Shown here one piece after another: positions 17,240-34,867 of a DNA stretch of 64,000 nt. The notes beneath the pieces are model-generated. The model had not been told where the DNA came from, did no database searches, and worked only from the letters and a program-made list of their open reading frames with translations. The first letter of the stretch is position 1; each line of letters starts with the position of its first letter. The DNA is from Armatimonadota bacterium (GTDB taxonomy: Bacteria > Armatimonadota > SYMT01), in contig JAWLHY010000001.1 in NCBI GenBank assembly GCA_041690135.1, positions 512,001-576,000 on the forward strand, written 5' to 3'. A program made the translations under genes and the position numbers.

Positions 17240-17425
17240 CCTGAACGAGCGCCCGGATACGCACTACGGTACTCCGCACGACTATCGGTGTGCAAAAGCT
17301 GCCGCGGCGTGGGCGATCCGATCGGCTTCTCGTTGGAGCAGTTCGACGCGATTGGGCGCTACCGTGAGGTCGAAGAGGGCCGACTGATCGACGCGAACGG
17401 CGGGCTCCCAGACGGCATCCGGTTT
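17240..17425 (+). pseudogene. decayed fragments of DUF1592-family gene
   Basis: LNERPDTHYGTPH ~ LNERLAKHYGIPH (23356) and CKSC..DPIGFSLEQFDAIGR..EVEEGR..DANGGLPDG ~ 23656-23791. Confidence 0.85.
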
Positions 17426-17471
17426 GCCCATTCGAGCGAGGGTGCCGGTGGGGCCAAAACACCGCCAGGTG

Positions 17472-17768
17472 TCAGGCCGGCGGAGATTCTGGGGCGAATA
17501 CCTCACAACTTCCGTCTTCGCCCCGGAACCAGTACAACCGGTTACACGCTGGGCAGTTGTAGATCTGGGTGTAAATGGCACACGCCACCTCATCCAGTTC
17601 CTGAACGATCTCACGGTTCTGTGCGTAATCGTCGGACAGCCGTTCAGCTTCGGCTTCAGCGCGGACGAACCACTCCCGGTCAGCATCCTGAATGGCGATC
17701 CAGAGGTCCGGCTCTGGCGACGGGGTGGTGTCCATCACATGGCCGCACCGGCAAACGAGCTTGCCCAC
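17472..17768 (-). CDS. cassette: small Zn-ribbon-like protein
   Basis: MGKLVCRCGH...YNCPACNRL; GGAGG RBS. Confidence 0.7.
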   Translation of the reverse strand: MGKLVCRCGHVMDTTPSPEPDLWIAIQDADREWFVRAEAEAERLSDDYAQNREIVQELDEVACAIYTQIYNCPACNRLYWFRGEDGSCEVFAPESPPA

Positions 17769-17801
17769 TCCAACCTCCAGTCAGGGCTCCGCCAAAGGAG
17801 G

Positions 17802-17848
17802 GCGGCTAAGGCCCGGTTCACCCGACGAGCACCCGCCAGGCCCCGTGA
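17802..17848 (-). repeat. degenerate attC
   Basis: gcggctaaggcccggttcacccg resembles one arm of the consensus; other arm decayed. Confidence 0.4.
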
Positions 17849-18343
17849 TCATGGGATATCTCTTGCCTCGAATTCCGTTGATGAAGTCGGCCTCTTGAGT
17901 CGTCGGAGACCGGTAGTGACAAGAAGGGCAGCCCAAATCAATGGTAGGAAGTATGGGACCAGGGTTTGGGACCCGAGTGCTCGCGTCCGGTCCAGCAATA
18001 GCGCGCCGAGCAGACAGCCGCCGATCACACTGACCCAACCTCCGGTTCTTCCCTTCCCCTGCAGGATCAGGACGCTGGCGAGCCCCGTTACAGAGCCCAG
18101 GGCAGCGCCTGCTGGGACCGTTGCTAACAGGGTCCAGCCGTATTGCCCCGTCGCGACTGTCCAACGGAAGAATAGCCAGTCGAACATGTAGGTCAGTAAG
18201 GAGAGGCCGAAGCCACCGGCAATGCTGCCGAGGGCGACACCCCCGACAATTCCCAAACCTTGCAACAGGTATCGTAGCCACCGCCCCCGGAGTGGGAAGA
18301 GCCATTCGATACGTTCGAGAGAAAGGGCCTTTCGTTTCATCAC
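17849..18343 (-). CDS. cassette: multi-TM membrane protein
   Basis: About four hydrophobic segments; bounded by attC sites. Confidence 0.7.
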   Translation of the reverse strand: MMKRKALSLERIEWLFPLRGRWLRYLLQGLGIVGGVALGSIAGGFGLSLLTYMFDWLFFRWTVATGQYGWTLLATVPAGAALGSVTGLASVLILQGKGRTGGWVSVIGGCLLGALLLDRTRALGSQTLVPYFLPLIWAALLVTTGLRRLKRPTSSTEFEARDIP

Positions 18344-18370
18344 TGGCTTCTCTCTGGTCCGCTATGCGGA

Positions 18371-18425
18371 GCCGAACGCCAGGCTCACCCCGTCTGTAAG
18401 GATCGGGGACAGCGACTGCTAGGCC
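18371..18425 (-). repeat. attC
   Basis: gccgaacgccaggctcaccccg...cggggacagcgactgctaggcc. Confidence 0.75.
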
Positions 18426-18949
18426 GTGTCAGTAATATGCATTGCGCCCCTGCTACGGAGATATTCCGCAATCTCCGGGTACTGATGCGTGCAGTCCAGC
18501 GGGGTGTTCCGATAACCCGTCTCGGGATCTTCTTCGATGGCATTAACGTCAGCACCCGCTTCGACCAGGATCTTCACGGCTTCCATCTGACCCCATGAGC
18601 AGGCGTATCCAAGTGCTACTTCGCCCGCGTCGTTGCGCTTCTCTGTATCCGCTCCGTATCGCAGGAGCAACCGCAGTCGCTCCAACTCACCTTCACAGGC
18701 GGCCTTCTGAAGTAGGGTCTGGCAAGCGGGTTCCGAGATGGCATCCGGGCTCAAGCCCGCTTGCAGTGCAGGTTCCAGAAGATCGGGAGCATGTCGGTCC
18801 AGGATCTCTATCCAGGTGCCGGCTTGACCTGGAAAGCGATGTAGCTCGGGGTATGCGGTGATGAGACGGATCACCGTGCTGCGGTCCTGCTTTCGTGCAG
18901 CCCGATAGAACCCCCAATAGCCTCTTTTGATTTCTAGCGAATCGGTCAT
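18419..18949 (-). CDS. cassette: ankyrin repeat protein
   Basis: LLQKAACEG...LLRYGAD, ALGYACSWG...LVEAGADVN; stop lies inside attC R''. Confidence 0.85.
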   Translation of the reverse strand: MTDSLEIKRGYWGFYRAARKQDRSTVIRLITAYPELHRFPGQAGTWIEILDRHAPDLLEPALQAGLSPDAISEPACQTLLQKAACEGELERLRLLLRYGADTEKRNDAGEVALGYACSWGQMEAVKILVEAGADVNAIEEDPETGYRNTPLDCTHQYPEIAEYLRSRGAMHITDTA

Positions 18950-18977
18950 GAGGTCAAGGTCGGTAAACTCTTGCGCG

Positions 18978-19071
18978 GCCTAGCGTCTAGCTCACCCACG
19001 CAGCCCCTGCATTACCTGTCGCCTGTGCTGCTGCCGGCGCGGGGCGCCGTCGGTAGCGGCGGATGTTGGGC
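18978..19071 (-). repeat. attC (long class)
   Basis: gcctagcgtctagctcaccc ... gcggcggatgttgggc. Confidence 0.55.
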
Positions 19072-19665
19072 CGCGCTCCGACGCAGCAGCGCTACGATCT
19101 TGGCATCCCCCGCACGCGCTGCTACCTGAAACACCGTCTCCCCATACTCATTCTTGGCGAATGGGTCTGCCCCTCGGGCTAGAAGTAGCTGCGCAATCTG
19201 ATAGTGCTCAGCGGAGTACTCGGTATCCTCAAGCTCCAAGCGCACCGCTTCGTGGAGCGCCGTACCCCCCTGCTTGCGGCGGGCATTGACATCCGCACCT
19301 TTGGCCAACAGAAGGGACACGACAGCGACTCGACCTTCGTCCGCTGCACAGTGAAGAGCAGTGAAGTCATCAAGCCCTTTGGCGTTGACGAGCGCGCCGC
19401 CCTCGATCAAGACTTCGGCTGTATCGAGATCGACGGCATAGAAAAGCGGTGGGTTCTCGGAAGCGTTCTTGGCATTTGGATTCATACCACTGGCAATCAG
19501 CCGCTTTACCTCTGCCACATCACCCTGTCTCGCGGCGAAATGCAGCGGCGTCCAGCCAGCGTCTGGATCCCACACGCCATCCAACGACTGCGGAGGAGCA
19601 CAGCCCGCGAGCCCCACTACCAGGAAGCCGGCAGCCAGGTGGGTTACATGTAAGTGGAACCACAT
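19012..19665 (-). CDS. cassette: ankyrin repeat lipoprotein
   Basis: Lipobox LAGC, repeated TPLH/TALH motifs. Confidence 0.85.
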   Translation of the reverse strand: MWFHLHVTHLAAGFLVVGLAGCAPPQSLDGVWDPDAGWTPLHFAARQGDVAEVKRLIASGMNPNAKNASENPPLFYAVDLDTAEVLIEGGALVNAKGLDDFTALHCAADEGRVAVVSLLLAKGADVNARRKQGGTALHEAVRLELEDTEYSAEHYQIAQLLLARGADPFAKNEYGETVFQVAARAGDAKIVALLRRSAAQHPPLPTAPRAGSSTGDR

Positions 19666-19706
19666 ACCTTGCTCCAATACGGATGGCTTGCGACGCCGAT
19701 GTTGCG

Positions 19707-19760
19707 GCGCAACGCCAAGCTCACCCGTCCATACGGATCGGGTGCAGCGACCTGTTAGAC
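19707..19760 (-). repeat. attC
   Basis: gcgcaacgccaagctcacccgtccatacggatcgggtgcagcgacctgttagac. Confidence 0.9.
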
Positions 19761-20579
19761 CGCGCCCCAACCCAGCGGTTCCGCCTTCCGACAACCGGGA
19801 GTTCGCCGGTGCACCTGCTTTTGAAAGCCAGGTGAACTTCCCTTCAGTCTTCGCAGCATCCTCTTAGCGCCCATCGCGGCAGCATGATTGGGCGACTTAC
19901 CTACATCCTGTAGCACCTGAATCAGCCGTGTACCGTACTCGAAGCGAAAGCTGGAATCCGCGGCTTGGAGGACTTGCTGCGCGGGCTCCTCAGCGTACCT
20001 GGCCAGCACTGCATCTCGAAACCTGGGAAGGAGCCCAAGGCTCACAATCTGGCATGCCATTTCCCGAGCGGTGGGCTCTCGACTTTGGAGATACGAAACA
20101 ATACACTGCTTCTCCCGGGGCACTGGGTGGCCATCTATATGCCAAATCAGGGCTCGCAAGGGTGCTTCGAAACTCTCTCGCGGCCCACCATACTGCGACT
20201 CAGCATCTTTCAGATGCTGTTCCGAGAGCGTCAATAGCTCGCCACGAGCTGGAGCATAGGGTCGAAGGTTGCCAAGGATCCAAATCGCCAGGTCCCTGTG
20301 ACGCTCGGTGAGCCGCTGCGTACGGATATGGTCTGAGAACTCTGCGAACAGTTGTGCAAACTCTGCCCTCGGAACCGGTTTCTCTCGCGAATCGGCCATT
20401 CGCCCCGCCACATATTCGATGCGTGCCTGTGCCTCTTTCATCGAAGCCGTGCGGCTTTGCTCGGGCCGAATTGCCCAGGGCTTCGCTAGGGCAGCGCTCT
20501 TCACGGATGGTTGACTGCACCCCAGCAACATCAACGGAACAAGACCGATTAAACACATCCGAATGGCTTTCAGAAGCAC
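19755..20579 (-). CDS. cassette: lipoprotein, HEAT-like helical
   Basis: Lipobox LLGC; stop TAA in GTCTAAC of attC. Confidence 0.65.
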   Translation of the reverse strand: MLLKAIRMCLIGLVPLMLLGCSQPSVKSAALAKPWAIRPEQSRTASMKEAQARIEYVAGRMADSREKPVPRAEFAQLFAEFSDHIRTQRLTERHRDLAIWILGNLRPYAPARGELLTLSEQHLKDAESQYGGPRESFEAPLRALIWHIDGHPVPREKQCIVSYLQSREPTAREMACQIVSLGLLPRFRDAVLARYAEEPAQQVLQAADSSFRFEYGTRLIQVLQDVGKSPNHAAAMGAKRMLRRLKGSSPGFQKQVHRRTPGCRKAEPLGWGAV

Positions 20580-20719
20580 GCATGCCTCCCGGCTCTAGCA
20601 TCAGACAGAGGGATTGACGTATGCTACGATCAAAGTCCGACTACCAGGCTATGCTGATATCACTTTCCTCAGTACGCTGCGGATTCAATACACCAGCGGG
20701 CCCGTGCCCCTCAAGCGCG

Positions 20720-20772
20720 GTCTAACGTCAACCTCACCCGTCCGTGCGGATCGGGTGCAGCGCCTGTCAGGC
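20720..20772 (-). repeat. attC (first site of array 1)
   Basis: gtctaacgtcaacctcacccgtccgtgcggatcgggtgcagcgcctgtcaggc. Confidence 0.85.
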
Positions 20773-20824
20773 TGCAAATTACACCACTCCAGGTGGAAGG
20801 CAGCCCACGCCAACTGTCCGCTTG

Positions 20825-20853
20825 ATTATACAGCGGCATTGCGATGCCGCCAA
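20825..20853 (-). promoter_or_regulatory. Pc-like sigma70 promoter of array 1
   Basis: Minus strand TTGGCG-N17-TATAAT facing cassettes; conserved at 34444-34472. Confidence 0.75.
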
Positions 20854-20884
20854 CAGCAGCGCCACCTGCGGGCGGACGGTGTCT

Positions 20885-21013
20885 GTGGAACCATTCCTGA
20901 AAAGGCGCCAGTGGGCAGGTACCCTCGCAGTGGGTACCCGCTTCCAGCATCTCAATTACCGGACGGAGCAGTCCCACCTCCCGGTCATCCGCCGCTTCAA
21001 CGACTTCCACAGG
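20885..21013 (+). pseudogene. intI: integron integrase N-terminal remnant
   Basis: RFQHLNYRTEQSHLPVIRRFNDFH matches IntI N-terminal pattern ([24 protein letters not shown] in IntI1); divergent from cassettes; ends at TIR element. Confidence 0.7.
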
Positions 21014-21197
21014 CAAGGCGGTTCCGTTTCCCTGAATGCGCATCGTTCTGTCGCCCCTTCGGGGCTTTTCTGTGCGGGGGTCAGGTCCGGATGCTTGCCC
21101 CCCCCCCGCGCGGGCACCCGTCTCTCTCCGCCCCTTCCCTACGGACGCATGCGCCGGGGCTGCGAAACTGGTTCTTGCCGGAAACTGAACCGCCCTG
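21014..21197. mobile_element. MITE-like element with 17-bp TIRs and internal REP-like palindromes, copy 1
   Basis: caaggcggttccgtttc ... gaaactgaaccgccctg; internal gccccttcggggc; homologous to 34713-34867. Confidence 0.7.
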
Positions 21198-21520
21198 GTT
21201 CCACGGGGCGTGCGTACCCGCGTGACCGTCCGCCAACGGCGGCAGCGCGTGCCGGAGGGGTTTCCACCCCTTGCGCACCGCGACAGTCAGGCCCTGGAGT
21301 TCCGCCAGCGTGAACGCACCGTACGGGGTGGGTGAGAGGGTCGTGGACGGACTCCCTCTGTCCCCCTTTGCGGCCCTTTGCGCCCCTTAGCGTCTTCGCG
21401 GTGCTCTGCCGGTGCAGGAAAAACGCACCTGGCGGAGTAGCTTAGGTACGGGGGCTCCTGCTTCCCGCCCATCATTCCGTGGCAACGGCAGGCCGAGCCA
21501 CTCCCGGACATCGAGTGAGC

Positions 21521-24019
21521 ATGCTGTTTCTTCGTAGCCTCCGCTTCAGCGACCCGCGCACGGCGTGGCTTTGCCGGTCGATGCCGCTCGTGCTGGTGGC
21601 CGGCGGACTGATCGGAGCGGCCCGCGCGAGCGGCGGGGCCACCGAACGTGCGCCCTCCCGGCCCGCTCCCGCCCGCAAGGCGCCGCGAAGGAACACGCCC
21701 GCGCCGGCTGCCCCGCGCCCGGCGCAGCCCGGTTTGGACCCCGCTGTGCTGGCGCGGTTCACCGGGCAGTACTGTCTCGGCTGCCACCGTAAGCCCAACA
21801 GCGCCGCGGGACTGGAGCTCGGCCTCCTGATTGGGCAGCCGGTCGCCCGGCATCCGGAGGCGTGGGAGAAAGTGGTCCGGAAGCTCCGCGCGCGTCAGAT
21901 GCCTCCGGTCGATCACCAGCGTCCGGACGAGCGCACCTATGAAACGGTGGCCGCGGGGCTGGAAGCCGCGCTGGACCGGGCCGCAGCGGCTCGTCCCGAC
22001 CCGGGCCGCACCGAAACGTTCCGGCGGTTGAACGCCACCGAATACCAGAATGCCATCCGCGATCTCCTGGCGCTGGAGATCGATGCCGCGGCGCTGCTGC
22101 CGCCCGAGCCGTCCAGCAACCGTTTCGATAACGTGACGGTCAGCGACCTCTCGCCCACGCTGCTGGACCGCTACCTCTCCGCGGCCCAGAAGATCAGCCG
22201 CATGGCGGTGGGACTGCCGGCGCGCTCCCCGGGCGGCGACACGATTCGGCTTCCGGCGGACCGCACACAGGAGGAGCACGTGCCCGGACTGCCGCTCGGC
22301 ACCCGCGGCGGGGCGCTCATTCCGTACACGTTCCCGGTAACGGGCGAGTACGAGATCTCCGTCCGGCTCAGTCGCGACCGCAACGAAGAGGTCGAAGGGT
22401 TGAAGGAGACGCACGAGCTGGAGCTGCTGCTGGATCGCGAGCGGATCGGGCTGTTCACCGTCCGTCCCCCGCAAGGCAGCGAGGGTCACGCGCAGGTCGA
22501 CCGGCATCTCAAGCAGCGACTCACGGTAACCGCCGGCCCGCACCGGCTGGGGGTGACCTTCTTGAAGAAGCCGTCTGCGCTGCTCGAAACCAAACGCCAG
22601 CCCTATCAGGCGCACTTCAACCTGCACCGGCACCCGCGCCTCTCACCGGCGGTCTATCAGGTCTCGATCACCGGGCCGTTCGGAAAGAACGTGCCCGGCG
22701 ATACGCCCAGTCGCCGCCGGATCTTCTCGGAAGCTGGGAAACCGGCGACCAGGAAGGCGATCGGCAAACCCGCCGAAGAGGAGCAGGCCCGGCAGATCCT
22801 CTCCCGCCTGATGCGGCGCGCGTACCGGCGACCCGTTACCCCGGAGGACCTGCAGACCCCGATGCGGTTCTTCCGCGAGGCACGCGCCGGAGGTCCATTC
22901 GAAGGCGCGATTGAAAGCGCGCTCAGTGCGATCCTCGTCTCCCCGAACTTTCTGTTCCATATCGAGCGCGATCCGCCGGAGGTGGCGCCGAGGACCGCCT
23001 ATCGCATCAGCGACGTGGAGCTGGCTTCCCGGCTGTCGTTCTTCCTCTGGAGCAGCCTGCCGGACGACACGCTGCTCGATCTGGCGGAACGGAAGCAGCT
23101 CAGCCGACCGGAGGTGCTGAACGCCCAGGTGCGCCGGATGCTGGCCGATCCACGTGCGAGCGCACTCGCCACGAACTTCGCCGCGCAGTGGCTGCACCTG
23201 CGGAACCTGGATTCGGCGACCCCGGACCTGCGGGCGTTTCCCGACTTCGACGATAACCTGCGGCAGGCGTTTCGCCGAGAGACGGAGCTCTTTTTCGAGA
23301 GCATCCTGCGCGAGGACCGCAGTGTGCTCGAACTGCTGACCGCGGACTACACCTACCTCAACGAGCGCCTGGCGAAGCACTACGGCATTCCGCATATCTA
23401 CGGCAGCCGCTTCCGCCGTGTCCCGCTGGCGGGGGAGCGCAAACGCGGCGGGCTGCTGCGACACGGAAGCATCCTGACGGTTACGTCCTACGCCACCCGC
23501 ACCTCGCCGGTGCTGCGCGGCAAGTGGGTCCTCGAAAACCTGCTCGGCATGCCGCCGCCCCCGCCGCCCGCGAACGTGCCGGCGCTGAAAGACAATACCG
23601 TGGCGGCCAATCTCACGGTACGCGAGCGGCTTGCGGCCCATCGCGCGAACCCCGCGTGCAAGAGCTGCCACGACGTGATCGATCCGATTGGCTTCTCGCT
23701 GGAGCAGTTCGATGCGATCGGACGCTGGCGCGAGGTTGAAGAGGGTCGCCCGATCGATGCGAGCGGCGGTCTTCCGGACGGCAGCCGGTTCGAAGGAGTG
23801 GCCGGGCTGGAACAGGCGCTGCGGAAGCGGCCCGAGCTGATCGCGCGTGCGCTCGCGGAGAACCTTCTGATGTACGGAGTGGGGCGCGTCGTCGACGAAC
23901 GGGACGCGCCCGCGATCCGGGAGGTCGTTCGCCACGCGAAGAAGGACGATTACCGGTTCTCGTCAGTGGTCATGGGGATCGTGAACAGCGTGCCGTTCTG
24001 CATGCGGAGAACGCCCTAA
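21521..24019 (+). CDS. DUF1587/1592/1595/1588/1585 multidomain protein with CxxCH motifs
   Basis: CLGCH, RRLNATEYQNAIRDLL, ELASRLSFFLWSS, TSPVLRGKW, CKSCH. Confidence 0.92.
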   Translation: MLFLRSLRFSDPRTAWLCRSMPLVLVAGGLIGAARASGGATERAPSRPAPARKAPRRNTPAPAAPRPAQPGLDPAVLARFTGQYCLGCHRKPNSAAGLELGLLIGQPVARHPEAWEKVVRKLRARQMPPVDHQRPDERTYETVAAGLEAALDRAAAARPDPGRTETFRRLNATEYQNAIRDLLALEIDAAALLPPEPSSNRFDNVTVSDLSPTLLDRYLSAAQKISRMAVGLPARSPGGDTIRLPADRTQEEHVPGLPLGTRGGALIPYTFPVTGEYEISVRLSRDRNEEVEGLKETHELELLLDRERIGLFTVRPPQGSEGHAQVDRHLKQRLTVTAGPHRLGVTFLKKPSALLETKRQPYQAHFNLHRHPRLSPAVYQVSITGPFGKNVPGDTPSRRRIFSEAGKPATRKAIGKPAEEEQARQILSRLMRRAYRRPVTPEDLQTPMRFFREARAGGPFEGAIESALSAILVSPNFLFHIERDPPEVAPRTAYRISDVELASRLSFFLWSSLPDDTLLDLAERKQLSRPEVLNAQVRRMLADPRASALATNFAAQWLHLRNLDSATPDLRAFPDFDDNLRQAFRRETELFFESILREDRSVLELLTADYTYLNERLAKHYGIPHIYGSRFRRVPLAGERKRGGLLRHGSILTVTSYATRTSPVLRGKWVLENLLGMPPPPPPANVPALKDNTVAANLTVRERLAAHRANPACKSCHDVIDPIGFSLEQFDAIGRWREVEEGRPIDASGGLPDGSRFEGVAGLEQALRKRPELIARALAENLLMYGVGRVVDERDAPAIREVVRHAKKDDYRFSSVVMGIVNSVPFCMRRTP

Positions 24020-24044
24020 CCAGGCACTGCCAGGCGCGCAGGCG

Positions 24045-24097
24045 GCGTTACGCCAGGCTCAGCCGTCCATACGGATCGGGCGCAGAGAATGTTAGAA
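24045..24097 (-). repeat. attC (distal, degenerate)
   Basis: gcgttacgccaggctcagccgtccatacggatcgggcgcagagaatgttagaa. Confidence 0.7.
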
Positions 24098-24102
24098 TCC
24101 GT

Positions 24103-24810
24103 TCAGCGCCTGCCTTCTATCCTCGCGAGATACATGGTAACCTCACGCACCACTTCCCCGGGGTTCGATGGGTCGTAGACTCCTGGGCTGATGGCGTCCG
24201 GGTCACCCGCTGACCACAGCCGAGACACTACCCGGTCCGAACTGGCTGCCCTTGGGGAGTAGGTGCGTATCCAAAGGCTCCCGTAGCCGGGGACAACCCA
24301 GGTCTCATACAGCCTCTTTGCCGTTGCGAAGAGCCGGTCCAGGTCCTGGCCGGTATTCAGGACGATGAAGGTACTTCCATACAACTCGGTCTCCCGGAGT
24401 TGCTCAACCTGAAGAAAGTCAGCCCGAAGCTGCTGCTCCTGAATGCCACGGAGGAGCGCCTCGCATAGCATCTGATCTTCCACCGCCACGATATTGCGGC
24501 TTCGCCCCATCTTCTCCAGATAATCCTGCCAGGCGTCCGGTGGCGGCGGCCACCGCTTCAGGTACGCATCCCGCTCCGTATCACGCTGCTGCCGCCAGAA
24601 GGGGAGGTACACATCACGCAGCCAAGCCTTGTAGATCCCCTGTCTGGACGGCCAGGGTTCCGCAACGGGCGACCAAGGTTTTATCTCGGGAAAGGTAACC
24701 CAAGGCGGGTGAGCTTCGGCCCCCTCCTGGTAGGCTCGGAGCTGTAGGGCGTACCATTCTTCCCATTCGGAAGGGCGTCCTCTCCAGGGCCATTGAAACG
24801 AGAATCGCAT
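24103..24810 (-). CDS. cassette: Trp/Pro-rich hypothetical protein
   Basis: PPW..FP..RQG..W..FW motif; GGAG RBS; flanked by attC. Confidence 0.7.
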   Translation of the reverse strand: MRFSFQWPWRGRPSEWEEWYALQLRAYQEGAEAHPPWVTFPEIKPWSPVAEPWPSRQGIYKAWLRDVYLPFWRQQRDTERDAYLKRWPPPPDAWQDYLEKMGRSRNIVAVEDQMLCEALLRGIQEQQLRADFLQVEQLRETELYGSTFIVLNTGQDLDRLFATAKRLYETWVVPGYGSLWIRTYSPRAASSDRVVSRLWSAGDPDAISPGVYDPSNPGEVVREVTMYLARIEGRR

Positions 24811-27580: not shown

Positions 27581-27730
27581 ACTGTGGTTTTAAGCCCACG
27601 TCCTCTTGCGCGCCGCAATTCAGGATCCCGTCCAGATGAACCCAGGCCGGGCATCGGCTTGTAGTAGCGTGGCTTTAGCCCGGGTCCCCTCGCGATCAGC
27701 AATTCAGGATCCCGTCCAGGTGAACCCAAG
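27581..27730. repeat. two-unit direct repeat (84-bp spacing), REP-like
   Basis: gcaattcaggatcccgtccag(a/g)tgaaccca at 27615 and 27699; gtagcgtggctttagccc. Confidence 0.7.
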
Positions 27731-27772
27731 TCGACGTTATGAAGAACCAGGAAGCGCTTGTCCTATTCGGAG

Positions 27773-28414
27773 TCACTCACGCTTGGCGACTTCGATCCTG
27801 ATAAACTCCGGAAGATACGACGGCGTACAGTTCTTGGCCACGTGCTCGTCCTTGTAGAGCCCCAGTGCTTCCCCCAGCTGGATGCACCGGGATCGGAATT
27901 CAGGCTCGTGAACCCCAATCTGGCCGGCGCAGAAGTTCATGGCCCATTGAACTTCGGGCTCGGCATGAGCCATATCGCTTTCCAGGGAATCCAGCAGGTC
28001 TGCACTGTTTCCGGGAGGTGCTTGTCCGACCCAGCGCAGGCGCGCCTGGTGATACCAGAACCAGCGCCGCAGAATGGGGGAAGGGTTCTCTTCCCACGTC
28101 GCGATCAGGGAGACCAGTTTCTTATCTTTGGTGAGCTGGTTTGCCAGCAGCCAGTCGGCCAGTTGGGTGCGCTCTTGCGGGTCATGCTGGAGCATATCCG
28201 CAGCCAGCCGATCGATGACGCTTTCTGCGAGGAGCTTCTTGTCGAAGATGAGGGTCGCCAGAAGGCGAGGGGTGTATTCCCCCGTGGACCAGAGCTCCAT
28301 TGCCAGATCGTGGTCTTTCTTGATCTCGGCGCCACGCTTTTTGAGGTCGCCCAGCTTCGGGTTGCCCTGGGTGATCTCGGCGACAAGCTCTTTTGCTCTT
28401 GCCGATAAAGGCAT
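27773..28414 (-). CDS. DNA alkylation repair enzyme family (AlkD-like HEAT)
   Basis: KLGDLKK..EIKKDHDLAMELWSTG, VQWAMNF..IG, CTPSYLPEFI. Confidence 0.8.
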   Translation of the reverse strand: MPLSARAKELVAEITQGNPKLGDLKKRGAEIKKDHDLAMELWSTGEYTPRLLATLIFDKKLLAESVIDRLAADMLQHDPQERTQLADWLLANQLTKDKKLVSLIATWEENPSPILRRWFWYHQARLRWVGQAPPGNSADLLDSLESDMAHAEPEVQWAMNFCAGQIGVHEPEFRSRCIQLGEALGLYKDEHVAKNCTPSYLPEFIRIEVAKRE

Positions 28415-28438
28415 TTAGTCTCTCTCCCTCTACGAACT

Positions 28439-29119
28439 TCAGAGTACGAAGTCGCCCTCGTCCAGGTCGTAGGACTGTACCACCCTCGCCCCCTCCAGCA
28501 CCCCGGGGCCGCCGATCAACTCGGTCAACCCTCCGGCCGCCAGCACGCGATCTTTGTGCATCAGGACGCCCAGGCCGTGGTCCCGGTCCCACCCGGTCTG
28601 GAACTCGAACGAGCTGAACCCGCACTCGTCCAGACCACTGTCCGCCAGACCGATGCCCACGAGTTTGAACAGGTGGTCGACCGCCGCCAACTCCTCCATC
28701 GCCACCTGGCGCTCAACCACCTTCCAGTACTTCTGGTACTCCCTGACGTGCGGCAAGTCCTCATCGCGGAACTGCGCCAGCCGCTTCCTGTGCCAGGCGA
28801 ACAGCTTGCGGCGGAGAGCCGCCTCGATCGCGGCGGGGTGGGCGAGGATGAAGTCCCACGCGCGCTCCTGGAAGGCGCCAAACCCGGTTGGGCTGGCCGC
28901 GTACAGCGCGACCTCGATGTCGGAACTCGCGTCGCGGGCCGACGGGCAGCCCGGGTCGCCGCTCGGCCCGCGGGATTTACTGACCCTCAGCTTCGGATAC
29001 TCGGGGTACGGTGGGGCGACCGCCACCACCGCGTCTCGCAGCAGCGGCTTGGCCGTGCGCCAGAGCCGCCGACCGTCGAACTCAGGGTCGGGCTGGAAAG
29101 GGTCGAGAAACGTGTTCAT
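28439..29119 (-). CDS. cassette: hypothetical protein (DUF6985-like C-terminus)
   Basis: FEFQTGWDRDHGLGVLMHKDRV motif. Confidence 0.65.
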   Translation of the reverse strand: MNTFLDPFQPDPEFDGRRLWRTAKPLLRDAVVAVAPPYPEYPKLRVSKSRGPSGDPGCPSARDASSDIEVALYAASPTGFGAFQERAWDFILAHPAAIEAALRRKLFAWHRKRLAQFRDEDLPHVREYQKYWKVVERQVAMEELAAVDHLFKLVGIGLADSGLDECGFSSFEFQTGWDRDHGLGVLMHKDRVLAAGGLTELIGGPGVLEGARVVQSYDLDEGDFVL

Positions 29120-29142
29120 AAAACCGCGGCCCTTCCTCTGCC

Positions 29143-29230
29143 GCCGAACGCCCAGCTCACCCGCCGCGTGACCAGCCTCAGTTCAGCGGTAACCGCCGTC
29201 CGTGCGGATCGGGCGCAGCGACTGTTAGGC
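29143..29230 (-). repeat. attC (long class)
   Basis: gccgaacgcccagctcacccg ... atcgggcgcagcgactgttaggc. Confidence 0.88.
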
Positions 29231-29255
29231 CGACATCCCGCCACAACCAGCGGGC

Positions 29256-29537
29256 CTATGACGCCGCCGCGTCCACCCAGATTTCGGTGCCAATGGGCAC
29301 ATCGTCCTTGTTGAGCGAGCGAAAGCAGCAAGCCCACCTCCGCTCCTTAGGCGGCGGGATACTAAAGTCGTACTGGATCGACAATTGAGCCACCAGTGAA
29401 GTGCCGTCCGGCCTGTGCAGTTCCGCGGCCACCAGCGCCTCTCCAGGAAACTCATTCAAGAGTGGCCCGGGAACTACGACGAGGCCGCGGCCGGCTATAT
29501 GGAATCGATCCTCGACCGTGAGTAGCACTCGCTTCAT
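29256..29537 (-). CDS. cassette: small beta-barrel protein resembling EF-Tu domain II
   Basis: LLTVEDRFHIAGRGLVVVPG ... KDDVPIG. Confidence 0.6.
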   Translation of the reverse strand: MKRVLLTVEDRFHIAGRGLVVVPGPLLNEFPGEALVAAELHRPDGTSLVAQLSIQYDFSIPPPKERRWACCFRSLNKDDVPIGTEIWVDAAAS

Positions 29538-29557
29538 CGCTACCTGACCGAACTGCA

Positions 29558-29643
29558 GCCTAGCCGCAAGCTCACCCGCACCGCGACTCGCCCCTGCCCA
29601 ACGGTAGCCGCCGTCACGCCGTCGGGTGCGGTGACTGTTAGAT
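29558..29643 (-). repeat. attC (long class)
   Basis: gcctagccgcaagctcacccg ... tcgggtgcggtgactgttagat. Confidence 0.8.
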
Positions 29644-29805
29644 CGCTATTCGGTTCCCAGCGCACCCACTTGCCACAGCTCTACCAACGACCGAAGAGGC
29701 AGGCCACGTAACCGGGTTCCAACCACCACCGTCCGGGTCTCTAACTTGAAAGCTACCCTGCGGGGCCCAATTCCTTCACGGCATCCAGTTTGTCTGGTAT
29801 CGAGG

Positions 29806-30135
29806 TTATTGACCTTCCGCATACGCGGCGATACAGCCACCGCACATCCACTCGCCGTCATCGTAAATGCCGGAACCACAGTCCGTAGTCTGGTGGCATC
29901 TCGAGCAGGTAGGACCGCTAACCCGCCGCGGTTCGTAAACCGGCTTGTGTGGAGGCTCCGGACGCAAGTCACGATAGGGGCCGCGCGTTTGTATACTTTG
30001 CCGGGGATCGGGCACAACGGCAAAGCTCCCGCAACGCGGACACCACCGCCCACCCCTGTGTTCAATGGTCTGCGTTCTCCGACACTTCGGGCAAGTTACG
30101 GATTCACCTGGTTGCTGCTGGTTGCTGAATTGCAT
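29806..30135 (-). CDS. cassette: double Zn-ribbon protein
   Basis: Four CxxC pairs (CPKC, CPRC, CSRC, CGGC); start uncertain. Confidence 0.55.
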   Translation of the reverse strand: MQFSNQQQPGESVTCPKCRRTQTIEHRGGRWCPRCGSFAVVPDPRQSIQTRGPYRDLRPEPPHKPVYEPRRVSGPTCSRCHQTTDCGSGIYDDGEWMCGGCIAAYAEGQ

Positions 30136-30167
30136 TGGCGCATGGTCTCCTCAACGCTAAGGGTGCG

Positions 30168-30220
30168 GCCTAATGCCGAGCTCTCCCGTCTATTCGGATC
30201 GGGTGCAGCGACTATTAGGC
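30168..30220 (-). repeat. attC with TAAT/ATTA core
   Basis: gcctaatgccgagctctcccg...cgggtgcagcgactattaggc. Confidence 0.85.
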
Positions 30221-30223
30221 CGC

Positions 30224-30658
30224 TTACTTGCTTTCGTGCGCGCCGCCGGACCAAATCTCTTGTTTCAACTCTTCCAGGGTTGTGATGGAAAGCAGCCCGC
30301 ACTCCTCTGACGGACCAGGTTGACCCTGGTTACAGGAGCGTAAGTGCTTCCACCAGGCTCGCAGCAGCAAAAGCGCCGCCCTCTCCACCGTAACTCCGGC
30401 GGCTGGGCACCAAGCTACGGGCACAGCGGCTTCCCAATGCCCCATGAAGCCCCAACTACCTCCACGATCATCCTGCTGCCAGAGAATCCACCGGTCTCTG
30501 TTCTTGGAAAGCAAATATTTCACAGGCCAACCTGGCCCATAGGTCCAGTATCCTTCCCCAACCAGCTTTGCGGTTCGCGGCAGCTGGCTCGGGCAGTCTT
30601 GCGTCAGCCACGCACCTGGCGGTTGATGGATGACTATGGTGGGGGTCCCAAGGCTCAT
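30224..30658 (-). CDS. cassette: hypothetical protein
   Basis: 144-aa ORF filling space between two attC. Confidence 0.6.
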   Translation of the reverse strand: MSLGTPTIVIHQPPGAWLTQDCPSQLPRTAKLVGEGYWTYGPGWPVKYLLSKNRDRWILWQQDDRGGSWGFMGHWEAAVPVAWCPAAGVTVERAALLLLRAWWKHLRSCNQGQPGPSEECGLLSITTLEELKQEIWSGGAHESK

Positions 30659-30707
30659 CGTTGATCCGTCACTTCGTCTGTCGGAATCAATACCACCAAG
30701 CGTTGCG

Positions 30708-30761
30708 GCCTAACGCCAAGCTCACCCGACCGTACGGATCGGCTGCAGCGGTTGGTGAGGC
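30708..30761 (-). repeat. attC
   Basis: gcctaacgccaagctcacccgaccgtacggatcggctgcagcggttggtgaggc. Confidence 0.85.
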
Positions 30762-30842
30762 CTCACGACACTGAAGTTCATTGCGATGAAGAAAATGGAA
30801 GGGGGAGAGTGTCATCGGTCGCAGGGGGTACGGCCCTGCCCG

Positions 30843-31184
30843 TCAACTCTCGGAGTCATACCCGAACTCGCGGAGTTCCTGCGAGCAGCGGCAAGCGTTG
30901 GCGATCTTCGCGGCCCATTGGCCGGCGGCTTCGCGCGACGGGAGTTCCAGGACACAGAAGCCGCCGTCGAACTCCTTCGTCTGGGGATACGTTTCGTTTG
31001 TGACCGTGCCGTCTGCGGCGACCATGAGGGGTGCGACCTCCGCGTTGATGCCACCACCGAACACGTACACGCCGGCAGTCTTCGCCTCGCGTATGACCGG
31101 GTGTGCCGCTTCGCCCACGGCGGCAAAGTCCTCGGCAGGGACGTCCATCGCCCTTCCCGGAAAGGAGATCAGGTACTTCGCCAT
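30843..31184 (-). CDS. cassette: YciI/DGPF-like protein
   Basis: GVYVFGGG, TYPQTKEFDGGF.VL..PSREAA.QWA. Confidence 0.8.
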   Translation of the reverse strand: MAKYLISFPGRAMDVPAEDFAAVGEAAHPVIREAKTAGVYVFGGGINAEVAPLMVAADGTVTNETYPQTKEFDGGFCVLELPSREAAGQWAAKIANACRCSQELREFGYDSES

Positions 31185-31222
31185 CCTTCGGTCCTTCGGT
31201 TGAGGTCGGTGCTGTTTGCGAG

Positions 31223-31275
31223 GCCCAACGTCAGGTTCACCTGTCCGTACGGATCCGGTGCCGCGACTGTTATGC
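31223..31275 (-). repeat. attC
   Basis: gcccaacgtcaggttcacctgtccgtacggatccggtgccgcgactgttatgc. Confidence 0.8.
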
Positions 31276-31298
31276 CGCACTCCGCACTGGGAAAGAGC

Positions 31299-31790
31299 TC
31301 AGTCAGCACCCTGCGTTTCAGGGTCGGCACCGCTTTCAGTGAGCTGACCGGCTCTGCGATTCAGGGTCGGATTGAGGACGCCTTTCATCTCCTCTTCGAG
31401 TTTGCGCAGGTCCTCACGAGTGACAGCGACTTGAACGGCAGAAAAGCAAACATTCGCCCTCGCCCACGCCCGTGTAGCGTTGTTGAAGGCAAGGGTACGT
31501 TCCTTCCCTCGCGCCTCGGGGTCGATCGCGGGGATGGTCATTCCGCTTCCGTACTCATCCCAGACGTAGAGGCTGAATTGGTCGCCTCCGCGTCCTCCAC
31601 CGAAGTGCGTGCCTACTCTCCCGCCGAGCGATACGTATGCGATACCAACGTATAGACACTCGTCCTGAAGACCACGACACTCGCGCCACCAAGCTGCGTA
31701 GATCCCGGCACCGACCGGAATCTCGCGCAACTGGTCGTAGGAGTAGCGGCTTCCGTCGCGAAGTTCTCTCGCAATCTCATCTGCTGTCAT
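31299..31790 (-). CDS. cassette: GIY-YIG nuclease
   Basis: GIYAAW, LYVGIA, conserved R and E, LNPTLN. Confidence 0.8.
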   Translation of the reverse strand: MTADEIARELRDGSRYSYDQLREIPVGAGIYAAWWRECRGLQDECLYVGIAYVSLGGRVGTHFGGGRGGDQFSLYVWDEYGSGMTIPAIDPEARGKERTLAFNNATRAWARANVCFSAVQVAVTREDLRKLEEEMKGVLNPTLNRRAGQLTESGADPETQGAD

Positions 31791-31829
31791 GCTGTCGCCC
31801 CGTTGTGGCCACTCGTGCGCTGCCGAGCG

Positions 31830-31926
31830 GCCTAACGCCAATCTCACCCGCCTCGACCCACACCACTGCTTCCGCTAACGGCCGTACGTGACGCTGGGGC
31901 GGCGTCGGGTGCAGCGACTGTCAGGC
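31830..31926 (-). repeat. attC (long class)
   Basis: gcctaacgccaatctcacccgcc ... ggcgtcgggtgcagcgactgtcaggc. Confidence 0.88.
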
Positions 31927-32680
31927 CGTCCGCAGCATCGCCAGTTGCTCGCGGCCGGTCATTGGTCGTCAGTGTCCATCGGATTAGCAGTAACCCCAGG
32001 CGGTTAAGATACATTCCACCGAACCCGCCGCGCGCGTCGGATGACGAGTAGCCCAGCAGTCTCTTCTCGCGAAGACGGTGCACCCATTCCTCTACGGTTG
32101 CCCAGTCATAAGCGATTCGAGTGCCTGCCTCGTGCGGATGGTTGTAGTCAAACTCACCCACAACTAGTTGCGGGAATGGCCGCGACACCAGGCTTACGTT
32201 CGGCCATGGGTGATCCGAAGTTTCCGGACGATTTGCTTCCGGGCATCGACCGAGCGCCGCCATGACCGCCAATCCGGGCGCGTCAATCTCTTCCAATAAG
32301 GTACGAGCCAGGCTGGCGTCCTCCCATTCGCTGCTCCCTGTGCCAAGCGGAGCGGTGTTGAGGAGTAGATCGCGGAAACGCAGACGCACATCCTCGTTCG
32401 TAGCGCGCCCTACCCGCGGCAAGACGGATTCGAGCAAGGACGCGTACTCTTCCGAGCTAACGTTGGGCGTCTGCTTGCCCGCCTCCAGGGCCTCGGCTAC
32501 TTCGGTGAGAGTTTGCTCAATCCGCCTGAACCGCAGCTCGACTGCGGGTCCGTAGATGAACTGCTCAATGGCCGGCCCAATGTAGGGCACAGACTTAAGC
32601 ACACCCTGGAGCACATTTGCCGCCTGATCCTGGCGGGACAGGCGTTCCAAACCTTCCGGGGCCTTCGTTAAATTAGTCAT
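31844..32680 (-). CDS. cassette: hypothetical, Abi-alpha/DUF4393-like architecture
   Basis: KSVPYIGPAI N-terminus, helical middle, C-terminal wHTH-like RLREKRLL..LNRLG; reads into attC. Confidence 0.55.
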   Translation of the reverse strand: MTNLTKAPEGLERLSRQDQAANVLQGVLKSVPYIGPAIEQFIYGPAVELRFRRIEQTLTEVAEALEAGKQTPNVSSEEYASLLESVLPRVGRATNEDVRLRFRDLLLNTAPLGTGSSEWEDASLARTLLEEIDAPGLAVMAALGRCPEANRPETSDHPWPNVSLVSRPFPQLVVGEFDYNHPHEAGTRIAYDWATVEEWVHRLREKRLLGYSSSDARGGFGGMYLNRLGLLLIRWTLTTNDRPRATGDAADGLTVAAPDAAPASRTAVSGSSGVGRGG

Positions 32681-32718
32681 TTTATAACAATGAATTTCAG
32701 CAGATGTATCGCAACGTG

Positions 32719-32805
32719 GCCTAACGCCAAGCTCACGCGCCGCACTAGCTGCATTGGTTCAGCGGTAGCACCAGTCTGCACGGTCGGGTACATCGACTGT
32801 CAGAC
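32719..32805 (-). repeat. attC (long class)
   Basis: gcctaacgccaagctcacgcg ... tcgggtacatcgactgtcagac. Confidence 0.8.
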
Positions 32806-32862
32806 CACTCCTGGGGTTTAGAGTTGGCCGGTACTCGGAAGTACCATCTTCTTGACCGTATC

Positions 32863-33999
32863 TCACGCCATCAGGCCTTGAAACAGACTGCGAACCCAGG
32901 TTCCGTCGCCCCAATCAACATGGTAAACAATGACATTAAGTGAGTCGCACAAGCGAGTCCGAGCTTCTGCTTCTGCTGAGCGAAATGAGAGAAGTAGGTG
33001 AGTGAGCGCAGTCGGTCGCGTAATACCACCAAATCCCGACCCAACTAATGGCATATAGAGGTCACCTCGAACGGGGCCAGCGGCAAGATTCTGCCATGCT
33101 TTTCGCAAGGCTAGCGCGAGGGACTCTTCGCTGAGACTAGCTATATATCGGCCGCCACTTCTACTGAGATACGTCAATGACAAGAGCACAATAGGCCCTT
33201 GCTCTGTCTCCATATGCACTAATGAGCCGGGTTCGTAAGGCACCTGACGTCCTGGTTTTTCAAGCGATACTTGGCTCTGCGCTACTGAAAGATCACATCT
33301 GCTAATCTCATCATCAAGGTCCTTATCGAACCTGGCAAGCTGCTCGCTATTACCCAGCAGAGCAATGCGCTTACCCAAAGTAGAACGGGGATCTACAATG
33401 CCACCTTCAAAGGTAGTGTCCAGATAAACATTCGCTGGAAATAGAATGGTGTTTGAATTGCTAACGTAGTTAGTGATATCACCCTTTATGACTCTAATTT
33501 CTGAATTGCGCAGTTTGCAAGAGAATTGCTCAGGATTGCGACGACCTAATAATGAGATCTGATCTCCTATCTGTGTAGCCGCCGGTCCTAATGCCGCAAG
33601 CAAGTTGCCATCTGAGCGATCGGCCGGATACATTGCCGCGGTAACTCCAGCCAAGTCACTCGGGAGTTTGAAATCTCTTGCGTCGCAGGCGAGGATGAAC
33701 GTACGGTTCCTGCCCAACGAGCCCATGAACAAGCCTAACTCGAAGAGAACGTTGTCCCGGGGTGTGTTGTGCTCTACACCACGAATAAGGGCAGTATCAT
33801 CAGGCGTGAGGACCAAGACCGCAAAATCATACTTGGTGGCAACATCCACGAGCGTTTCGAGTGTGCCACCACTCAGTAGTCCGAAGACCCCTTGACTCCA
33901 GATAGTTACCTCTGCACAAGCCGCCAAATGTATTTGGAGCTTTTTGGCAACAGCAAGACCCTCGGTTGAAGAACCTACGAAAACTGAAGGTTTGGACAT
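32863..33999 (-). CDS. cassette: CAP12/Pycsar-type TIR domain fused to ThsA-type Macro domain
   Basis: VFVGSS.E, YDFAVLVLTPDD, PRDNVLFELGLFMG (TIR); IKGDI, PAN.YLDT, MPLVGSGFGG (Macro); visibly AT-richer. Confidence 0.8.
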   Translation of the reverse strand: MSKPSVFVGSSTEGLAVAKKLQIHLAACAEVTIWSQGVFGLLSGGTLETLVDVATKYDFAVLVLTPDDTALIRGVEHNTPRDNVLFELGLFMGSLGRNRTFILACDARDFKLPSDLAGVTAAMYPADRSDGNLLAALGPAATQIGDQISLLGRRNPEQFSCKLRNSEIRVIKGDITNYVSNSNTILFPANVYLDTTFEGGIVDPRSTLGKRIALLGNSEQLARFDKDLDDEISRCDLSVAQSQVSLEKPGRQVPYEPGSLVHMETEQGPIVLLSLTYLSRSGGRYIASLSEESLALALRKAWQNLAAGPVRGDLYMPLVGSGFGGITRPTALTHLLLSFRSAEAEARTRLCDSLNVIVYHVDWGDGTWVRSLFQGLMA

Positions 34000-34057
34000 C
34001 ATTCTCCTAGCCGGACATGTCGTCAAATCAGCTTCAGGTTGAGCGACCATTCATGCG

Positions 34058-34143
34058 GCCTAACACCAAGCTCACCCGCCGATTAACTCGCATTTGTTCA
34101 ACGTACCAGCCGTGTACGCTGTCGGGTTCAGCGACTTTCAGGC
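34058..34143 (-). repeat. attC (first site of array 2)
   Basis: gcctaacaccaagctcacccg ... tcgggttcagcgactttcaggc. Confidence 0.8.
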
Positions 34144-34443
34144 CCTGACTTGGGCTCAGCATTACCTTCCGGCACGCGGGCGTCGGGTTCGTGGCGCCCA
34201 CTGCCGCCAGTTCGGAGGACTTCCGCACGGCTGATTGGCGCGAACCACTCCGCCGTTTCTCCGTAAGACCCGTATTTCAATGCGGGGTCGGGCCGGGCCT
34301 GCGACCGCGCCCCCGTTAAAGGCACCTTCACCCGTGCTGCCGGTACCAATGGGCTCACCCATCTGTATGGATCCGACGCAGCTCCTGTTTAGGTCGCGAA
34401 TGGCCGCCGAAGTGGAAGCCAGCCCACACCGGCCGCCTGCTCG

Positions 34444-34472
34444 ATTATACAGCAGCATTGCGACCCTGCCAA
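34444..34472 (-). promoter_or_regulatory. Pc-like sigma70 promoter of array 2
   Basis: Minus strand TTGGCA-N17-TATAAT, in a block homologous to 20801-20865. Confidence 0.78.
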
Positions 34473-34712
34473 CAGCAGCACCACCGGAAACGGTATCCGG
34501 ACCCCTGTGAATCTCACCACCGGGATCTCATCGGTCCGACAAAGTTTCGCGCACCCCCGCGCCTTCATCGCGTCCCCCCTAAATAGCGCCATCGCAGCTT
34601 CCCATCGGCGCTTCTCCCGCCCCGCCGTGGCGGCTTCTGTCCTCCATTTCCCTTCCATGAGTGGCCCACGGGACTTCCCCCGCCGACTCTCTGTCGTAAT
34701 TCGATCCGCACA

Positions 34713-34867
34713 CAGGTCGGTTCAGTTTCCCTGAATGCGCATCGCTCTGTCGCCCCTCCGGGGCTGTTCTGTGCGGGGACAGGTCCGGGGGCTTGCGCCC
34801 CCGGCTACTCTCTCTCCGCCCCTCCGGGGCTACGAAACTGGTTCTTGCCGAAAACTGAACCGCCCTG
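34713..34867. mobile_element. MITE-like TIR/REP element, copy 2
   Basis: caggtcggttcagtttc ... aaactgaaccgccctg; two gcccctccggggct palindromes. Confidence 0.7.

Follow-up and report, generated by a model that had tools for sequence, protein, structure and literature searches.

Two adjacent decayed integrons in a split DUF1592–DUF1552 locus, probably derived from an old segmental duplication

A 64,000-nt stretch of an Armatimonadota genome (hereafter the window; G000:C1:512001-576000 of the 9.1-Mb, 25-contig genome G000) was analyzed in this study, which revealed two adjacent units that resemble decayed chromosomal integrons. The G+C content goes from ~0.68 to ~0.60 across 17.2-35.2 kb of the window. 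Read along the plus strand, the first unit comprises a fragment of a DUF1592-family gene, an array of attC sites, a hairpin, a putative cassette promoter (Pc) and a scrap of an integron integrase gene (intI); the second follows directly with an intact DUF1592 gene, an array, a hairpin, a Pc and further intI scraps, and ends at a DUF1552 gene. In each unit, a minus-strand cassette array would be read from a sigma-70-type Pc, with an attC-like hairpin that may have been the docking site adjoining the promoter. On its far side, the promoter is followed by the apparent plus-strand wreck of a divergent intI and by a miniature inverted-repeat transposable element (MITE).

Sixteen attC sites, together with one degenerate site, were identified in two arrays of 3 and 13, all in a single orientation. 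These sites are imperfect palindromes that share the boxes GCGGCCTAAC...GCTCACCCG / CGGGTGCAGCGACTGTTAGGC and are laid out on the plus strand as GCGGCCTAAC-GCCAA-GCTCACCCG ... CGGGTG-C-AGC-GACT-GTTAGGCCGC, with an R box bearing AAC/GTT cores, an unpaired 5/4-nt spacer, an L box and a variable terminal structure. Their length is 59-60 nt in ten cases and 92-103 nt in the other six, the extra length being confined to the middle. Two bases are bulged on the 3′ arm (plus strand), and the predicted single-stranded DNA fold of the site at 24836-24894 has a 10-bp R stem, the 5/4-nt spacer and a bulged T. Canonical attC sites carry their extrahelical bases on the L″ arm of the bottom strand.

A covariance model (R1) was built from the ten short sites with a hand-set structure, RNAalifold having given the inner stem only. 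Within the window, R1 scores the ten short sites at 62-82.5 bits on the plus strand and at no more than 20.7 bits on the minus strand, and its best match outside the arrays reaches 21.4 bits; parts of the long sites are picked up at 11.5-33.5 bits. Pairing of half-sites with a hidden Markov model (HMM) over the whole genome yielded 17 pairs, 16 of them in this region and one on contig C18. Among 41 genomes (G000 and 40 relatives), R1 matches were found in four, namely G000 and three genomes of one family of the same phylum. Two of these three, G010 and G038, encode IntI (428 and 419 bits against the NCBIfam TIGR02249 cut-off of 265), and their attC sites bear the same L-box letters, CCAAGCTCACCCGCC...GGTCGGGTGCAGCG. 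At G038:C351 and G010:C103 the sites adjoin intI with the model strand toward it, and intI is divergent from the cassettes, as in the window. Architecture, strand bias and cross-detection in IntI-encoding genomes thus identify the repeats as attC sites. Two lone sites of the same family also occur elsewhere in the genome, at G000:C9:164302-164359 (minus strand, 45.1 bits) and G000:C18:96611-96705 (minus strand, 26.1-34.9 bits), each directly 3′ of an open reading frame (ORF) of 123-127 aa, as single cassettes outside arrays.

All well-supported ORFs of the two arrays are encoded on the minus strand, with an attC site after each. Array 1 has minus-strand sites at 18368-18427 (R1 64.6 bits on the plus, that is, the folding or bottom, strand) and 19704-19763 (80.5 bits), with the attC-like hairpin at its head. 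The cassette at 18377-19712 (minus strand) carries ankyrin-repeat ORFs (Pfam Ank). The last cassette, at 17425-18376 (minus strand), lies downstream of the site at 18368-18427 and holds two unnamed ORFs (18305-17781 and 18343-17849) that have no match in Pfam; a terminal attC was sought in 17425-18367, where R1 finds no site. Array 2 extends over 24042-34146 on the minus strand, and its 13 sites, located by R1 and the half-site HMM, are at 24042-24100, 24836-24894, 26103-26196, 26721-26779, 27018-27076, 29140-29233, 29555-29646, 30165-30223, 30705-30763, 31220-31278, 31827-31929, 32716-32808 and 34055-34146.

The cassettes of array 2 encode HNH, Clp_N, DNA-alkylation-repair-like, DUF6985, YCII and TIR-Macro proteins according to Pfam and PADLOC, the latter naming only the TIR-Macro, HNH and ankyrin cassettes. 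The TIR-Macro cassette (32863-34050, minus strand) is the second of array 2 and the first with an ORF; its 395-aa product combines a CAP12/Pycsar-type TIR N-terminal domain with a ThsA-type Macro domain (Pfam 9.8e-27 and 1.2e-14; PADLOC TIR effector 9.7e-44). Its G+C content of 0.50 is the lowest of the region and its composition the most foreign, and the gene is a candidate single-gene anti-phage cassette as judged from its domains. The G+C content at third codon positions (GC3) ranges from 0.47 to 0.89 in the cassette ORFs, and from 0.84 to 0.91 in resident genes on the flanks. A 2122-nt cassette (27027-29148) contains three ORFs (Clp_N, DNA-alkylation-repair-like and DUF6985) with no attC detectable between them; either the intervening sites have been lost, or this is a multi-gene cassette. 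The 5′ end of its Clp_N gene is duplicated in another cassette (26016-26097 vs 27503-27584, 89% identity), and an 84-nt tandem repeat is located just upstream of the same gene (27590-27649 vs 27674-27733, 82% identity).

Comparison of the two arrays at the DNA and protein levels revealed no cassette common to both, the sole match being translated attC. The short attC sites are on average 75.7% identical between arrays (21 pairs) and 75.1% (3 pairs) and 71.5% (21 pairs) within arrays 1 and 2, respectively. Because the likeness between arrays equals that within them, the sites appear to derive from one pool.

At the head of each array lies a platform block with a Pc-like promoter directed into the array on the minus strand: block 1 at 20793-20866 (-35 at 20853-20848, -10 at 20830-20825) and block 2 at 34412-34485 (-35 at 34472-34467, -10 at 34449-34444). 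The two blocks are 82% alike and are the sole such pair in the genome (E 4e-14). The putative promoters read TTGGCG-17-TATAAT in unit 1 and TTGGCA-17-TATAAT in unit 2, matching the consensus at 10 and 11 of 12 positions, and shuffles of each of the two regions give 0.1-0.2 such sites by chance. A scan with the promoter core as an exact pattern returned no genome-contig record and one metagenome contig, which has nothing else in common with the window and was set aside as a chance match. Comparison of the blocks with the G010 and G038 intI-attI regions revealed no similarity at the DNA level, attC motifs being the only matches.

The expected place of attI is occupied in unit 1 by a complete attC-like hairpin at 20717-20775 (minus strand, R1 77.9 bits), which is the sole attI candidate there; ~17 nt separate it from the promoter block and ~110 nt from the point where intI is inferred to have begun. 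Its counterpart at the head of array 2 (34336-34398, minus strand) aligns with it and scores 12 bits, the unit 1 hairpin being perfect and that of unit 2 degenerate. Hairpin and block together are homologous over 20733-20866 and 34354-34485 (74%). Next to the degenerate hairpin is an ORF-less cassette of 281 nt (34064-34344).

Remnants of intI were found on the plus strand of both units, and the inferred intI start is 17-19 nt beyond each promoter block. In unit 1, the stretch 20936-21019, divergent from array 1, reads TRFQHLNYRTEQSHLPVIRRFNDFH ('LNYRTEQSHLPVIRRFNDFH') and corresponds to approximately codons 18-45 of the N-terminal part. It is 61% identical over 23 aa to residues 22-44 of the G010 IntI (tblastn, E 2.6e-4) and is, apart from an Xer-like gene, the best match in the window to a profile of 22 IntI proteins of the phylum when six-frame pieces are searched (E 0.002); against Pfam PF13495 it scores E 0.031, below the family cut-off. 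In unit 2, two further plus-strand pieces lie at 34994-35065 ('KREQDRVTRLPNSLLEP', approximately codons 165-188; IntI profile E 0.39) and, in another frame, at 35068-35121 ('VHLHVLNRGGRGERSPLE', approximately codons 305-322; E 3.6). They rank second and fifth among the window pieces, the Xer-like gene again set aside, are adjacent to each other, occupy the expected strand and place, and end 21 nt before the DUF1552 start at 35143. The surviving remnants thus amount to ~28, 24 and 18 codons. Their presence in both units indicates that the platforms once had an integrase and so were not integrase-less by origin.

Two other stretches were considered and rejected as intI. An IntI-like stretch at 19264-19407 (plus strand, E 0.26 to 0.65) is antisense to a strong ankyrin ORF and was attributed to chance. 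The tyrosine recombinase at 48751-49818 scores 165 bits with TIGR02224 versus 62.7 bits with TIGR02249 and is Xer-like; it lies by tRNA genes. These tRNA genes (48360-48432 and 48592-48678, minus strand), the Xer-like gene and the lower-G+C DNA that continues to 64000 together look like an integrated island (48360-64000).

An intact intI, the search for which the preliminary description had recommended, was found nowhere in the 9.1-Mb genome: none of nine TIGR02249 matches exceeds 265 bits, and the best reaches 53.9 bits. Across the phylum, 24 of the 401 genomes sampled encode an IntI protein over this cut-off; of six genomes from the family of G000, none does. The genome does contain what appears to be a third decayed integron on contig C2 (G000:C2:763767-769277). 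There, a 46-residue C-terminal piece of IntI (C2:764477-764620) shares 71% identity with its G010 counterpart across 48 aa, scores 56.5 bits with TIGR02249 (E 2.8e-15) and is surrounded by weak attC-like sites and by small ORFs on the minus strand (glyoxalase-like, GNAT-like, isochorismatase-like and ankyrin). Clusters of attC sites without an integron integrase are referred to as CALINs, a class defined together with IntegronFinder (Cury et al., 2016, PMC4889954). With 3 sites in 2.4 kb and 13 sites in 10.1 kb (maximum spacing 2.1 kb) and no intact intI, both arrays belong to this class. Because no intact integrase is encoded in the genome, the arrays are frozen CALINs, the cassettes of which are at most still transcribed from the putative Pc.

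The second unit separates two genes that are normally neighbors. The intact DUF1592-family gene, which forms the distal boundary of unit 2, occupies an ORF at 21479-24019 (plus strand, likely ATG at 21521) with the Pfam domains PSD3, PSD5, PSD4, PSCyt3 and PSD2, and the DUF1552 gene, its usual immediate partner, is at 35143-36492 (plus strand; Pfam HXXSHH, 2.7e-93). In G006, the closest genome compared, which belongs to the same family as G000 and to a different genus, the stop codon of DUF1592 and the start codon of DUF1552 overlap (ATGA), and an ankyrin gene follows; these three genes are colinear with 21740-24012, 35143-36492 and 36976-38383 of the window, and the first two orthologues are 78% and 88% identical at the amino acid level. 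In a survey of DUF1552 genes, the best 80 loci were fetched, and 71 were counted after nine with less than 800 nt upstream had been dropped: a DUF1592-type C-terminus lies -20 to +150 nt from the DUF1552 start in 64 of the 71, at a gap of 163-196 nt in three, and no such gene is present in four. Since the pair is normally adjacent, the 11,123 nt that separate its members here, that is, the 11.1-kb unit 2, represent an insertion. On the left, the inserted DNA opens with GCCCTAAC, a core resembling an attC R box, which supplies the DUF1592 stop (24012-24019), and the last two codons of the intact gene differ from those of the G006 orthologue. As the two genes are normally translationally coupled, the integron would have entered between them once this lineage had separated from the nearest sequenced genus. 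For the DNA that precedes DUF1592 in G006, no counterpart exists in G000 at E 1e-15, and the left flank is therefore not reconstructable.

The distal boundary of unit 1 is formed by a DUF1592 pseudogene fragment of ~190 nt in two plus-strand pieces, at 17239-17278 and 17290-17424. They match 23355-23394 (82.5%) and 23656-23790 (83%) of the intact gene over 175 aligned nt; ~260 nt have been deleted internally, both ends are gone, and Pfam still recognizes PSCyt3/DUF1588 (E 3.5e-7). The best genome-wide match of the fragment is the neighboring gene (E 5.6e-33). This match, the uniqueness of the platform block pair and the same order of parts in both units point to a duplication. Misassembly of the twin units is unlikely, given that they are at most 90% alike and only over short stretches.

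The preliminary description had read this region as minus-strand attC arrays with homologous promoter blocks (significantly aligned here), DUF1592 fragments at 17240, an intact DUF1592 gene at 21521 and no shared intact cassette, and the results above bear out each of these points, the arrays being supported by both the covariance model and the half-site HMM. Its central proposal, that an integron platform was duplicated with its flank, holds in part: a local duplication best explains the repeated order DUF1592 - array - Pc, but the terminal-inverted-repeat elements, which are indeed homologous and situated at 21014 and 34713 as described, do not belong to the duplicated unit.

These elements are MITE copies of 184 nt (copy 1, 21014-21197) and 155 nt (copy 2, 34713-34867), flanked by the target duplications CTTCCACAGG / GTTCCACGGG (21004-21013 and 21198-21207) and GATCCGCACA / AATCCGCACC (34703-34712 and 34868-34877). 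The family has terminal inverted repeats beginning CAGGGCGGTTCAGTTT..., is non-coding and shows target duplications of 8 to 10 bp in several aligned copies. The two flanks of each local copy agree at 8 of 10 positions, and the target sites of the two copies at 5 of 10; the DNA beyond the flanks has no detectable homology, as 298 of 300 and 110 of 300 shuffles reach the observed scores. Different target duplications and non-homologous flanks indicate two separate insertions, the first inside intI at approximately codons 44-46 (F-H-G). An assignment of the copies to two subfamilies, on the basis of two 18-19-nt indels, is weakened by their 90% identity in aligned columns; their closeness suggests a local hop or a common source. 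Genome-wide, 48 BLAST matches including the query, or 42 in another search, were found for this family of ~155-185 nt (e.g., C1:209397-209550, C5:228369-228521 and C9:158934-159104), many of which keep an 88-nt GC-rich hairpin core alone. Terminal inverted repeats, target duplications of ~10 bp, the absence of coding capacity and the copy number of ~48 BLAST matches are all typical of MITEs, and the reduction of many copies to the 88-nt core is a feature of the family here.

Taken together, we consider it probable that the region represents two adjacent decayed chromosomal integrons, that is, CALINs accompanied by intI scraps, and that they are best explained by an old segmental duplication, the junction of which lay inside intI. 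Had an internal segment simply been duplicated in tandem, the intact gene would come first, unlike the observed order. Instead, the tandemly duplicated segment may have begun upstream of DUF1592 and ended within intI. The upstream copy would thereby have received a truncated intI, and its redundant DUF1592 would have decayed to the ~190-nt fragment, while the downstream copy would have kept a complete intI that for a time could act on both platforms. Two sister MITE copies would later have inserted separately, and deletions would have destroyed the second intI. At the 175 DUF1592 sites, compared in ungapped blocks because a MAFFT alignment misaligned the first piece, unique changes number 20 in the fragment, 15 in G006 and 8 in the intact gene (three sequences, unrooted); these counts would suit a duplication that postdates the divergence from G006, with the pseudogene decaying faster. 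Rearrangement has also affected the left flank of unit 1: a direct repeat of ~120 nt (13759-13878 vs 17086-17205, 78%) brackets a 2Fe-2S / molybdopterin-binding oxidoreductase gene pair (14119-16829), and its second copy ends just before the DUF1592 fragment.

Several observations weigh against this reading. The junction is expected within 21208-21500, and no IntI similarity was detected at 21208-21408, so that its position is deduced; contigs from relatives match the DNA upstream of the DUF1592 gene from ~21409 only. With three sequences, the fragment is not placeable before or after the G006 split. The unit 2 remnants are individually non-significant, and no N-terminal IntI motif was found between the second Pc and the second MITE; moreover, a unit 1 remnant that is N-terminal only and unit 2 remnants that are central and C-terminal only would also fit one intI split by a rearrangement. 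The two local MITE copies are mutual nearest relatives (90% of aligned columns vs at most 82% to nine others), which could look like shared descent. In the four integrons of the phylum with a match in the expected orientation (4 of 25 loci), the nearest site is 592-823 nt from intI, farther than the hairpin here. Compensatory changes in the attC sites affect 1 of 22 pairs, fewer than in shuffles, and the folding z-scores of true sites are modest (-2.1 to +0.5), so that the hairpin rests on its conserved boxes.

If the duplication is accepted, the arrays may differ through integrase turnover or through complementary deletions, since both give the same picture, and we judge it about evenly balanced whether some integrase activity followed the duplication. 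An integrase supplied from elsewhere is not required, because a junction inside intI leaves unit 2 with a complete gene. It is possible, though less likely than not, that both copies kept capturing different cassettes after the duplication, as the preliminary description inferred, and that an integrase, perhaps acting in trans, replaced the whole content of both arrays. The lack of cassette homology at the DNA and protein levels, the single pool of short attC sites, the GC3 spread of the cassettes relative to resident genes with the most foreign composition in the TIR-Macro cassette, and the whole intI that the proposed junction leaves in unit 2 all favor such continued capture, as does the former presence of another integron in the genome, evident from the scrap of intI on contig C2. 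On the other hand, no insertion is dated relative to the duplication, the docking site of unit 2 is degenerate, and no intact integrase exists now.

Metagenomic evidence bears on the same question. Relatives at 92-96% identity, representing different strains, are present in two soil and root metagenome runs (X1 and X2, with shares of 0.07 and 0.05), the contigs of which were joined at 85% likeness, a level at which many joints are chimeric or driven by repeats. Contigs of X1 cover 18389-19629 and 24837-25215, and those of X2 cover 19798-20367, 27743-28141 and 28644-29160; cover is missing at 32272-33599 (the TIR-Macro cassette) and over most of 17664-18327, gaps that do not imply absence. Cassettes from each of the two arrays are 92-96% identical to those of the relatives, a divergence about the same as that of DUF1592 and DUF1552, which suggests long vertical residence and speaks against recent turnover. 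Pointing the other way, as a lead only, is a 2878-nt X1 contig that matches the cassette at 18389-19629 at 94% and whose flanks are not those of its neighbors in the window.

A rather unlikely alternative is that the duplication was followed by complementary loss without any later gain, an ancestral array of ~16 cassettes having lost its distal cassettes together with the 3′ end of the DUF1592 copy in unit 1 and its promoter-proximal cassettes in unit 2. Just two deletions would be required, and reciprocal loss is expected for redundant copies. Unit 1 does lack a terminal attC and the last 229 nt of its DUF1592 copy, which has suffered more deletions, and unit 2 does retain an ORF-less 281-nt stub beside its degenerate docking site. 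Both losses would nevertheless have to be exactly complementary, no remnant of an array 1 cassette was found in the stub at 34147-34335, and the heterogeneous composition of the cassettes is left unexplained, though complementary loss does not require an explanation for it.

It is improbable that no local duplication took place at all, and that two related integrons either arrived separately, unit 1 perhaps bringing a piece of a relative's DUF1592, or descend from one integron split by a rearrangement that copied the promoter block. The complementary intI remnants noted above would fit this, as would the lack of homology between the units from block to MITE and beyond the MITE, and the fragment is about as far from its neighbor as from the orthologue of another genus. 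A further lead is an X1 contig that joins DUF1552, 35051-34961, a unit-1-like block (20864-20717) and 34313-34266 into a compact mixed platform, although joints made at 85% likeness are often chimeric or repeat-driven. Against it, DUF1592 sequence would have come to lie at the distal end of each array by coincidence, with matching orientation and order; the promoter block occurs nowhere else in the genome, and the splitting of one integron still needs the block to be copied.

Finally, that the repeats are a species-specific palindromic family resembling repetitive extragenic palindromes, lying between small genes and unrelated to integrons, is almost certainly wrong: the lack of compensatory base changes and of any Rfam family (at gathering thresholds, Rfam returned two tRNAs only and no family for the attC sites or the MITE) would suit it, but 16 of 17 half-site pairs are confined to this locus, every site has the same orientation 3′ of a minus-strand ORF, a variable middle lies between conserved AAC/GTT-cored boxes, the same motif adjoins true intI in other genomes, and intI remnants stand at the array heads.

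Under the favored segmental duplication, a more specific and quite unlikely scenario would be that the docking site of this lineage was a complete attC-type hairpin in place of a conventional double-stranded attI, and that one surviving integrase served two Pc/docking platforms 13 kb apart, the arrays of which diverged completely after a tandem duplication with its junction in intI. If the hairpin did act as docking site, cassettes would be inserted at the platform by recombination between attC and an attC-like site.

Elements of this class are already known as CALINs beside intI pseudogenes, and what is unusual here is their position, their tandem layout and the hairpin where attI is expected. 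Sedentary chromosomal integrons such as the Vibrio superintegron have attC sites that are homogeneous within the array, cassettes mostly of unknown function and a one-directional array read from Pc, features that they share with the present case. Compared with the latter integrons, the arrays here are far smaller (3 and 13 cassettes), no intact IntI and no toxin-antitoxin cassettes were detected, and a full hairpin stands at the expected position of attI. According to the account of Cury et al. (2016, PMC4889954), CALINs may originate through loss of intI or through rearrangements, and intI pseudogenes were recorded near 15 of 279 CALINs. As in the definition given there, each array here has no fewer than two attC sites in the same orientation and no intact intI nearby. 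Unlike typical CALINs of that account, two occur in tandem, each with a promoter block and an intI scrap and with DUF1592 sequence at both distal ends. The pseudogenes counted in PMC4889954 cover more than 50% of the profile, whereas the remnants here are far shorter, and the procedure described there would return plain CALINs.

In Xanthomonas, as described by Gillings et al. and summarized in PMC12444791, integrons occupy a fixed place downstream of ilvD, their intI is mostly inactivated by frameshifts, stops or deletions, each lineage has a frozen array, and other parts of the genome harbor additional CALINs. Relative to that description, the present case is similar in that the integron lies by a housekeeping-type gene, intI is dead, the arrays appear frozen and other sites occur elsewhere. 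It differs in that it belongs to another phylum (the best DUF1552 relative is from Armatimonas sp.), the nearest genus is without the insertion, a coupled gene pair is split, and the platform is present twice.

This case leaves the understanding of how integrons work unchanged. It bears on the origin of CALINs, as the loss of intI would be readable here stepwise, from truncation through MITE insertion to internal deletions, and a segmental duplication would be seen turning one integron into two arrays. For this lineage, it would document how an integron came to part two translationally coupled genes, in a family in which six genomes searched yielded no integron integrase.

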